From IMG/VR virus record IMGVR_UViG_2579779049_000013, positions 1-13,158 of that record: 13,158 nt of DNA. One strand, 5' to 3'. Shown one piece after another: positions 6,001 through 9,000 of the stretch. Made by a program: the position numbers. The DNA comes from a virus. Lineage: Duplodnaviria; Heunggongvirae; Uroviricota; Caudoviricetes. How positions within the stretch are numbered: the stretch's first letter is position 1; every line of letters starts with the position of its first letter.

Positions 6001-9000
6001 TTGGGATTGGCTTGCGTTTATTTCTGGAGCGTTTCGTTGGAAGGTATTTGCAGTTTTCGCAGATGATGTCGGTGATGCTTCTTTGCTGTCGCCTCATGCC
6101 GCCCTCCTGACGCCCTGCCCGATCGCCATCAATGCCGCTTTGGATACAGTAGTAAACATTCGTCGAGGACTGATGAACGGTCGCCAAATCAGCAGCATGG
6201 AGCCTTTGCTGTTTCCCTTCTTCTCCAGCCCTGTCGATGGTTCGATAAAATTAATCCGTCCATCAGTGATGATGCGAACTTCGTCGACACTCTCCAGAGC
6301 CTTGCTGAACCATCCGACTGACATATCCTCTGGCACAAGCATCACTACCGTCTGTCGCTGTTGTATGCACTGCTCAGCGGCTTTTTCCACCCACGGCCTG
6401 ATATTGCTGTACGGTGGGTTATTCCAGATTGCACCGTGGCTTACCCACTCAGAATTGAGCGCGTCGTCGGCCTCAGTTAGCCAGTGAGCACACAGAGCAT
6501 TTTTGTCGCTCGCTGCCGAATCCAGCCAGAATCCAAACTCAATATCCAGTGCATCAAAAAGCCAAAGCGGCGTTTGCCAGCAGTCCTTGTCGTGTGATGG
6601 CGTATTTGATTTGATAGTCATGCAGCCCTACCTTTTCGTTGTGACCATTCATACTCTCGCCGGGAGTCATCACTCCACCGCACGTTGCGCTCTGAGCCGA
6701 ACCAGAACATGATTTCGATAAGCTCAGTCATGCTGGCCTTCCGCATTTTGCTGGTACGCACGCCAAGCATGACAACGCCACCGTCGATACCAGGCACACT
6801 TCGTTGCTCCAGTTTTTTGGTCTTAAGCCACAGGGCAGTGAACAGGTCTTTCCAGTCTTCCGGCGCCAGCCGTTGACCATGCCATAGCACCTGACGCGAA
6901 ACATCGTTCAGCATCGGCCACATACGGTCATTCTGCGCTTTGCTGCGCTTGGGTTCTTTAACGTGGACTTCGTGGGGTGACTTGTCGTCGATGGGTAGTG
7001 AGAGAATGGCGTCTATGGCGTTATTTCTGATTGCTTCGTTGCGAAGCAGAAAGGTTTGCTTCATCTCCTGCTCTCCGGTTCCATTTTTCAGCCGCCGCAG
7101 CAACTGATGGTGCCCATGCCCCCCTGGCTTCACAGAGGTCACATTCTGCATAGCCCCACACATCAATATTTATTCCGGCCTCAACCCACAGACGAGCATT
7201 ACCGCCGCAAAACGGACATTCTTTTAGCTTTGGCTGGGTTAATGACAGGTCGCTCATGCTCACTCCTTCACTTAAAATCCAGACTCCGGATAATTCTGTT
7301 GCGCTGAAACTCATTGTTGAGTTTGAACAACCGTCGAAGAACACGGTCACGCGGATAGCATCGTGCGGCAGGTGAATGCTCATACAACTCATCAAGCGGC
7401 AAACTGGACGATGAACGATACCGATACCAACGCACCAACTCTTCACGAAAATTAGCCCTGACAAGCTCAGCTATCGTACTCATTTCTTAAAACCTCCTCA
7501 AACGCATTCTGACGCATTTTTCATTCTCGCTGCTTATTGGCATGCCTTGCACGCGTTTACCTCGCTACAGAGCGATTGTGATGCCTTAAAAGCGATTTAT
7601 TGAAGTGATATTTGCTTAATCGAAATTCTTTTCTTTGATTCCTGCGGCTCTGATGGCTTTCATTACTGCAATTACCGTTTTGTCACGCCCATCCTCATAA
7701 CCCATCGCATAAGCACCTTCTTCACCATCTTTCCAAAAGTCGTCATTCGATTCGGGCCAGTCGATATCCAGTTCAATAGCAGAGCGCGATGCCTGCCATA
7801 TCACCCAGGCAAACTCTTTTAATTCATCGTCTCCCGTGAACTGGCTTTTGTCTTTTGACCACCAGTTTTCAAACTGTCGGTAGCTATCGTTCACTTCCCT
7901 CTCCCCCAAATAAAAAGGCCTGCGATTACCAGCAGGCCTTTATCTGTTTTTAACACGCTTTCGAGTCCTTTTAGATTTTTCCTTAAGATATTCCGCAAGT
8001 TTATCCTCATCATTATTAAATTGAGATAAAAGCTCATGCTCGCAATTAAGTGCTTTACTCGCATAAGTTCCATATAGTTTCTTTCTTGCTAGTGCTGCTA
8101 TGAATGCTGCATCTTCTTTGCTATCGAAATACCCTAACGATATTGTCTTATTTTTATAACCAACATAAGACTTCCACCTGCCAGTTGGCTTATACCAAGA
8201 CACTCCAATTGCACCGGATGTGTTTAATCTATTCCCTACAATGTTTCTTGCATTCTGCTCTTCTGTTGCCAGTCTTAGGTTTGAAATCCTATTGTCAAGT
8301 CTGTTCCCATTTACATGATCAATAAACTTAGGAGGCCATTTTTTGTATACATAGAACCAAGCAAGTCTATGCGCCTTATACAAAACATTATTTATACTAA
8401 TGCATATATAACCACCACTAACACCTCCAGCAATACTACCTTTTACTCTTACTACTGAATTTGTTTTTAGCCATTTAAATATTCCTGTTTCTGAGTCATA
8501 TGATAATGTTGACAGAAGCTCATCGTGATCAATTAGTTTTTTTATTCGCATAAAGAATATACTTAATAATATATACAGTAAGAACCATTAGTAACGATAA
8601 CCCTGCTATTAGCTCAGTGATGTAGATGGTCATTGCTTCATCTCCCTTTCCATTTCATCAATGTCAACGTCATCAGGAAGATGGGAGCAATACGCCGCCA
8701 TACCATGATGATTTATCTCATACCCTTTGAACGTTACCATCTGGCGCGTAATCTCAACCTCGTTCAGGAATCCGTCATCGCATAACTGCCTGGCTATTTT
8801 CGATTTGGTCTGGATTATTGGTAGTGCCTGTTCTTTCAAAGCGCATGATATTTGTGCATCCCATGCCTTTTCGAGAATGGCTAATTGTTTTTTATTCATT
8901 TAATACTCCGTTACGTTTTCCTGTCGCCACGCCTCGTCATATTCCGATTTCGGCATATTGGCGATGTAGCTATATGGCGATCCTGATTCAAGTTGCAGGA

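Follow-up and report, generated by a model that had tools for sequence, protein, structure and literature searches.

The subject of this report is an AT-rich cassette of about 658 bp at positions 7944..8601 (minus strand) of a 13,158-nucleotide stretch of DNA from a Shiga toxin (Stx) phage of the Caudoviricetes, IMG/VR virus record IMGVR_UViG_2579779049_000013; this whole stretch is referred to below as the window. The cassette carries a gene (7940..8551, minus strand) for a 203-amino acid (aa) protein with HNH_3 and AP2 domains, and it lies in the conserved spacer between the replication module and the nin region, within the micro-gene ninA and ahead of a terminator that matches lambda tR2. 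The HNH gene begins with ATG at 8551-8549 and ends with TAA at 7942-7940, which abuts the tR2 stem. As a result of the insertion, the first ten codons of ninA continue into 24 codons of island sequence, giving a chimeric 34-aa open reading frame (ORF), here termed ninA' (8529..8633, minus strand), whose stop codon at 8531-8529 lies 20 nt past the HNH ATG. This small ORF overlaps both of its neighbors, the upstream ORF by an ATGA and HNH by 23 nt, and the genes around the island are all on the minus strand.

In phage VT2-Sakai, the sequences corresponding to 7301-7943 and 8602-8899 of the window are contiguous (BLAST against the VT2-Sakai locus), with flanks that are 97.7-99.4% identical to the window, which has 658 bp extra; lambda lacks the cassette as well. 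An earlier prediction made from the sequence alone had proposed comparison with an island-less Stx relative as the way to define the insertion, and VT2-Sakai sets the limits at 7944-8601, with a junction that is ambiguous by up to 8 bp. The insertion point falls at codon 10/11 of ninA, within a conserved spacer of about 83 bp between the replication module and the nin region; the spacer between ren and ninB of lambda is 83 bp, the same as in VT2-Sakai. The low-GC island of the original prediction is confirmed by calculation, at 0.339 GC for 7944-8601 vs 0.484 for the remaining window, and the lowest 300-nt value of the whole 13 kb, 0.303, is at 8301-8600. GC at third codon positions (GC3) is 0.25 in the HNH ORF vs 0.47-0.62 in the adjacent genes. 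The island had been drawn as 7912-8633, of which only about 7944-8601 is inserted DNA; the terminator (7912-7943) and the start of the small ORF (8602-8633) are phage backbone, outside the island. Milder low-GC stretches (0.39-0.40) occur elsewhere in the window, at 1001-1300, 2701-3000 and 4701-5000.

Neither terminal inverted repeats nor target-site duplications are present at the island ends, 7944 and 8601, and there is no transposase; an insertion sequence (IS), transposon or miniature inverted-repeat transposable element was rejected on these grounds. Identity as an RNA element or a defense gene was likewise rejected, since no Rfam family, introns included, was found in the island and no defense-system match was obtained beyond one "homing endonuclease" model. 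A deletion in the island-less phages was also considered and discarded: insertion is the preferred polarity because the island is rare, is compositionally foreign, and interrupts an ORF that 112 of 113 empty sites keep intact.

That interrupted ORF, ninA, is a conserved lambdoid micro-gene of 24-31 codons. Where the island is lacking, as in lambda, 21, Nil2 and VT2-Sakai, the start of ninA overlaps the stop codon of the final replication gene, its frame continues through tR2, and its end overlaps the start codon of the nin gene that comes first. The empty-site ORF of VT2-Sakai has 25 codons, MTIYITELITGLLVIAGLFIWGRGK; it begins with an ATGA on the upstream stop, passes through the hairpin, and its TGA overlaps the GTG of the next gene. 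ninA is annotated in phage 21 (81 nt, between ren and ninB) and in Nil2, and forms PHROG 5907. In lambda, a 26-codon ninA at 40567-40647 of NC_001416 (about 1068-1148 of the extracted locus, L005) spans tR2 and overlaps the ren stop and the ninB start, and is unannotated in RefSeq. The backbone 5' end of ninA in the window (ATGACCATCTACATCACTGAGCTAATA..., 8602..8633, minus strand), with its ATG overlapping the upstream TGA (ATGA), is common to VT2-Sakai, lambda and all loci. A Shine-Dalgarno (SD) sequence, AAAGGGAG (8642..8649, minus strand), precedes this ATG by 8 nt, inside the 3' end of the upstream gene. The orphaned 3' part of ninA (...GLLVIAGLFIWGRGK and stop, 7891..7939, minus strand) is now the tail of a 60-aa ORF at 7891-8073, whose TGA at 7893-7891 overlaps the next gene's GTG at 7894-7892.

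Judged by its sequence, the 34-aa ORF is a disrupted allele of ninA and not an intact NinA member. It matches phrog_5907 over residues 1-12 only (E 4e-4), compared with residues 1-26, the full length, for lambda ninA (E 1.6e-19), and it departs from full-length NinA, which is 24-31 aa, begins MTIYITEL[IVM]TGLLVIAGLFIWGR... and spans tR2. The nin region is a chain of non-essential genes joined by ATGA overlaps; ninA of lambda is among them, and the functions of nin genes are largely unknown (PMC8022706). The locus in the window has the same ATGA overlaps typical of this chain, together with the lambda hairpin, and differs in that ninA is split: codons 1-10 stay joined to the start codon, and the 3' portion that spans tR2 is left as an orphan on the downstream side of HNH.

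The terminator itself (7905..7941, minus strand; hairpin at 7914-7941 plus U-tract) was recognized by terminator scan, by folding and by identity to lambda, in which hairpin and U-tract, AGGCCTGCTGGTAATCGCAGGCCTTTTTATTTGG, are identical and lie between ren and ninB. The same hairpin is present in VT2-Sakai. The label comes from the phage Nil2 record, which annotates "tR2 terminator" inside a 78-nt coding sequence named ninA. By this sequence identity the hairpin is lambda tR2, part of the phage backbone and outside the island. The original prediction had taken a bidirectional terminator behind the HNH gene as a sign of insertion. The hairpin is indeed called as a terminator on both strands in the window, but it is no mark of insertion because it is present and identical in lambda and in island-less phages. 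In the empty VT2-Sakai site the terminator is called on the gene strand only, with an 8-bp stem; the terminator of the window looks bidirectional because the A-rich end of the island (...AAAAACAGATAA) abuts tR2, providing a T-run on the opposite strand and lengthening the stem from 8 to 10 bp. The lengthening uses two residues of the U-tract, and the HNH stop sits directly against the stem (7914-7941 of the window vs 2017-2040 of the VT2-Sakai locus, L001). The longer tR2 stem that accompanies the cassette might change termination efficiency.

The 203-aa protein matches Pfam HNH_3 with E 2.9e-15 (56.1 bits; cut-off 24.8) and AP2 with E 1.6e-6 (28.7 bits, slightly under the cut-off of 33.3), and phmmer matches it to WRI1 with E 0.003. 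An AlphaFold model built with 41 homologues has a mean predicted local distance difference test (pLDDT) score of 89.6. Residues of about 114-165 in the model match plant AP2 domains (TEM1, AtERF1 and WRI1; Foldseek probability 1.00), and the modeled AP2 part lies within a root-mean-square deviation of 1.6-2.1 Å of the TEM1 and AtERF1 domains. The predicted structure thus gives independent backing to the AP2 domain despite its sub-cut-off Pfam score. The N-terminal half matches I-HmuI (PDB 1U3E), an intron-encoded, nicking HNH homing endonuclease of phage SPO1, with 106 columns superposed and a Foldseek probability of 1.00. The family alignment shows an invariant DH...N...N motif, with D78, H79, N87, N91, N100 and N103 the same across all 41 homologues. 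I-HmuI differs in being intron-encoded and in having other C-terminal DNA-binding modules, and sequence identity between the two is about 20%. By sequence and predicted structure, the 203-aa protein is an intact nuclease with conserved catalytic residues.

HNH is an ORF of its own, with separate ATG and stop codons and in a frame that differs from that of ninA'. As had been predicted, no Shine-Dalgarno motif occurs in the 25 nt preceding its ATG, GTATATATTATTAAGTATATTCTTT. By folding, the start region is an AT-rich stretch that is not unusually structured.

The HNH gene is intact in 31 of 32 loci. Among its copies, 9 synonymous and 9 non-synonymous changes are spread over 131 and 478 sites, respectively (pN/pS about 0.27, Fisher p 0.006), and residues 60-119 show no amino acid change. 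Because of this ratio and the unchanged core, the nuclease is taken to be under purifying selection, or to have been released from it only recently. A run of seven A residues (A7; 8537-8543, minus strand) occupies HNH codons 3-5 within the overlap with ninA'. In locus L030, A8 replaces A7, so that HNH is frameshifted and truncated to 7 residues and the small ORF is extended to 55 aa. The possibility that frameshifting at the A7 run fuses ninA' with HNH finds no support, and this single A8 variant simply truncates HNH.

A tblastn search of 50,697 phage records with the HNH protein found 19 records at 95% identity or above, and all other matches were below 60%. The 741-bp unit 7893-8633, wherever present, is 97.8-100% identical. 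The island occurs in 19 of 405 tR2-bearing phage records, 5 of 120 IMG/VR tR2 loci, and 125 of the 1967 complete E. coli genomes (among 5426 in all) that have a tR2 match. Carriers include HK022, PA28, SH2026Stx1 and phage 1717, and three Stx2a phages with the island match the window at 99.4%. The original prediction had named presence of HNH at the same locus in all related phages as a finding that would speak against it; the gene is in fact absent from the same site in most of them, and with the domain matches and GC values this supports the description of a free-standing, inserted and compositionally foreign HNH-AP2 endonuclease gene.

Surveyed in thirty IMG/VR loci and the reference phages, the unit is preceded by six unrelated, intact upstream genes (an orf28-like gene, ren, two DnaB-type helicases, an intein-less primase-helicase and one other) and followed by about ten different downstream modules. 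All six upstream contexts also exist with an empty site. No donor lineage was identified: the closest relative outside the island, P0004, is at most 63% identical, and others reach at most about 50% in metagenomes and less than 60% in phage records. P0004 is itself a chimera, a 171-aa HNH allele at 5918-6516 of locus L006. It matches the window at 100% over its first 280 nt, ninA' included, and changes in its 3' half to a different sequence of higher GC; rusA comes directly after this allele, with no tR2. This allele therefore indicates recombination inside the endonuclease gene. In locus L068, an empty ninA/tR2 site has GCA in place of ACA (Thr10Ala), a variant seen otherwise mainly in alleles with the island. 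It may represent a footprint of co-conversion, a target that is resistant, or a progenitor site.

Taken with its presence and absence at one site in otherwise near-identical genomes (the window and VT2-Sakai), the cassette is probably a free-standing homing endonuclease gene (HEG), encoding an I-HmuI-like HNH domain joined to AP2, that has inserted in the ninA/tR2 spacer. The HNH plus AP2 architecture is a recognized HEG class (Magnani et al. 2004, as cited in PMC10448857), and HEGs cluster beside essential genes and at exchange boundaries (Barth et al. 2023, PMC10448857). The cassette resembles the HNH-AP2 HEGs of phages, cyanobacteria and protists (PHROG 99 and T7 gp3.8-like relatives) in its N-terminal HNH_3 and C-terminal AP2 domains, and also in being a stand-alone ORF of foreign composition, sporadically distributed, at a module boundary next to essential replication genes. 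Matches to those relatives come mostly from phages of such genera as Felixounavirus, from T5-like phages and from Xp10, and several of these phages have multiple copies per genome; the putative HEG of the window differs in circulating among temperate lambdoid phages, where it occupies one defined site within ninA, on the 5' side of tR2.

Because the cassette lies upstream of tR2 and no promoter or terminator was detected between the island and the replication genes, it would be co-transcribed with the latter from pR during lytic growth. Ribosomes would start at the backbone ninA ribosome-binding site (RBS) and ATG and stop just beyond the HNH ATG, and HNH may then be translated by termination-reinitiation coupled to ninA'. 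The anatomy makes this plausible, with an SD-less ATG, a 23-nt ORF overlap, and an unstructured, AT-rich start region. Family and distribution suggest that the nuclease would nick or cut island-less ninA/tR2 spacers in other lambdoid genomes that reside in or infect the same cell, and that the cassette would be copied in by recombinational repair via the short conserved flanks. It is possible, though somewhat doubtful, that the cassette evolved to exploit a ninA that is translated by ribosomes passing through the tR2 hairpin, with the near-universal spacer as homing site and the ninA RBS and ATG serving reinitiation at the SD-less HNH start.

Several points weigh against a homing endonuclease gene that works in this way. 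Cleavage, homing and the translational coupling of HNH to ninA' are steps that we infer, and the junctions have no clean target-site signature. The sequence common to all filled contexts is only 32 bp plus about 51 bp of flank, the two pieces that together form the ninA/tR2 spacer. The 24 stop-free island codons that complete ninA' lie within what chance would allow (P about 0.12), and four loci keep an intact HNH gene though an IS has destroyed the ninA' start, so that coupling is not needed for the HNH ORF to persist in prophages. ISEc8 is the element in phage 1717 (L004) and L023, at the equivalent of window position 8602, with the ninA' start lost and HNH intact. An IS3-family element with an rve transposase is the one in L019 and L024, at the equivalent of 8586, and there too the ninA' start is lost and HNH intact; both kinds of element have entered the AT-rich ninA' leader shortly before HNH. 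Finally, PA28 is identical to the window in the island and the downstream DNA, and the two diverge only upstream of 8633, the ninA ATG; part of the context diversity is therefore ordinary module exchange at gene boundaries and not movement of the cassette.

This last comparison lends itself to an alternative in which a single insertion left HNH as a passenger, inert or in decay, or as a domesticated nuclease, spread without homing by ordinary recombination at the ninA/tR2 linker, that is, by the homologous and Red-type recombination that shuffles lambdoid modules. The 100% identical islands of the window and PA28 are attached to different replication modules with a break exactly at the ninA ATG, and the limits of the unit coincide with gene boundaries; the frameshifted copy in L030 and the recombination inside the gene in L006 would also suit a passenger. 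We nonetheless consider passive carriage unlikely, given that all six upstream contexts are found both filled and empty, that island identity stays at 97.8% or more despite unrelated flanks on both sides, that the catalytic core is under purifying selection with only one of 32 copies broken, and that relatives occur as multi-copy, free-standing HEGs in virulent phages.

An SD-like motif is found 6-11 nt before the ninA ATG in all seven unrelated upstream gene ends, for which chance would give roughly 0.18 per context. In ninA codons 2-10, 7 of 21 possible synonymous changes are seen vs 5 of 60 non-synonymous (p 0.011), and all five of the latter are conservative. The ancestral ninA is thus probably a genuine gene, and since the chimeric 34-aa form inherits its start signals, it is very likely translated. 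The island-encoded tail is strongly hydrophobic, with a best 19-residue Kyte-Doolittle window of 2.19; the 454 other stop-free 19-mers read from the island in six frames all stay below 2.0. Even with a threshold as permissive as E<=10, tblastn retrieved no relatives of the tail beyond the 19 phages that bear the island, and the substitutions seen in it are non-synonymous and radical only (G11W, L18H).

From these features one might propose that the ORF is a ninA allele in which the C-terminal transmembrane segment has been replaced by the hydrophobic tail of the cassette, with ninA function kept as a membrane protein. That ninA looks translated, and that the hydrophobicity of the tail is unmatched in other island frames, fit such a proposal; a tail restricted to island-bearing phages and varying only by radical changes does not, nor does the destruction of the ORF's 5' end by IS elements in four loci, a tail of 24 codons free of stops is no rarity in DNA of this composition (P about 0.12), and ninA is listed as non-essential among nin genes whose functions are largely unknown (PMC8022706). 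The evidence for a functional new tail is weak and mixed, and a functional membrane protein seems improbable. The small ORF of the original prediction does have a good RBS and overlaps both neighbors. Neither of the identities offered for it, an independent membrane-peptide or toxin gene or else a pure chance ORF, holds as stated, its 5' end being that of ninA.

Could HNH serve the phage, for instance as a nuclease that excludes or competes with rival lambdoid phages, or as an accessory of replication or recombination, and not be selfish? The gene adjoins ren, which is exclusion-related, and replication genes, it lies upstream of tR2 so that early expression is expected, and it shows purifying selection. 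A nuclease present at only about 4-6% of tR2 sites, foreign in composition, without a defense-system match, and from a family best known as HEGs (PMC10448857) makes such a service very unlikely. That the 34-aa ORF is a type-I-toxin-like peptide, one suggestion of the original prediction and in keeping with its short, hydrophobic sequence and basic C-terminus, is hardly credible, for its RBS and ATG belong to backbone ninA inside a polycistronic operon, promoter-like sites are no commoner than in shuffled sequence, no antitoxin or antisense RNA family was found with Rfam, and there is no PADLOC, NCBIfam or Pfam match, leaving it with neither the promoter of its own nor the antisense RNA antitoxin that define a type I system.

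The free-standing homing endonuclease gene that we favor is already known as an element, and is an ordinary one. Identical copies of both ORFs are annotated in HK022 (HK022_56, the 34-aa ORF, and HK022_57) and in SH2026Stx1 (H3H24_gp28, the 34-aa ORF, and H3H24_gp29), and the PA28 annotations of identical copies read "HNH endonuclease" and "homing endonuclease." A description of an HNH insertion at tR2/ninA was not found in the literature. What is added here are the exact limits, the identity of the terminator as tR2, and the recognition of the 34-aa ORF as part of a split ninA. Their practical value is in correct annotation: the terminator is tR2, the small ORF is a truncated ninA and not a toxin, and the island is 7944-8601.

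The recombination hot spot between the replication and nin modules of lambdoid phages is well known. If the nuclease does break the spacer, it is a possible driver of this hot spot in lambdoid phages, including those that carry Stx, and if active it could contribute to exchange of replication and nin modules among co-resident prophages of enterohemorrhagic E. coli (EHEC). For temperate lambdoid and Stx phages, the locus is a clear natural case of a homing-endonuclease cassette whose empty site is precisely defined and is present in lambda itself. Since lambda carries that site, homing, nuclease specificity and the SD-less coupling are testable by standard lambda genetics.

Upstream of the island, the last replication-module gene of the window phage (8630..8899, minus strand; 89 aa) is like orf28 of VT2-Sakai and belongs to phrog_2239. 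Downstream, the first nin-region gene after tR2 (7616..7894, minus strand; 92 aa from its GTG) is like VT2-Sakai orf29 and belongs to phrog_343; Lar-like and NinB genes follow further on. Beyond the 89-aa gene lies a 968-aa Toprim/AAA primase-helicase (8900-11806, minus strand) that contains a LAGLIDADG intein. The intein, of 342 aa (9668-10693 of the window, minus strand), interrupts the Walker A motif (GHGK|T), and an intein-less, 626-aa allele of the primase-helicase is present in L006. The original prediction had described the replication module, with its intein and HNH gene, as a double target of two unrelated endonuclease families. The intein is real; the two elements vary independently, in that the island is found with ren, DnaB-type and intein-less primase-helicase modules. 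In having two unrelated HEG types on either side of one essential locus, a LAGLIDADG intein in the primase-helicase and a free-standing HNH gene 350 bp downstream at a mosaic boundary, the window resembles the HEG islands of Barth et al. (2023, PMC10448857), and it differs from them in this independent variation of intein and HNH.

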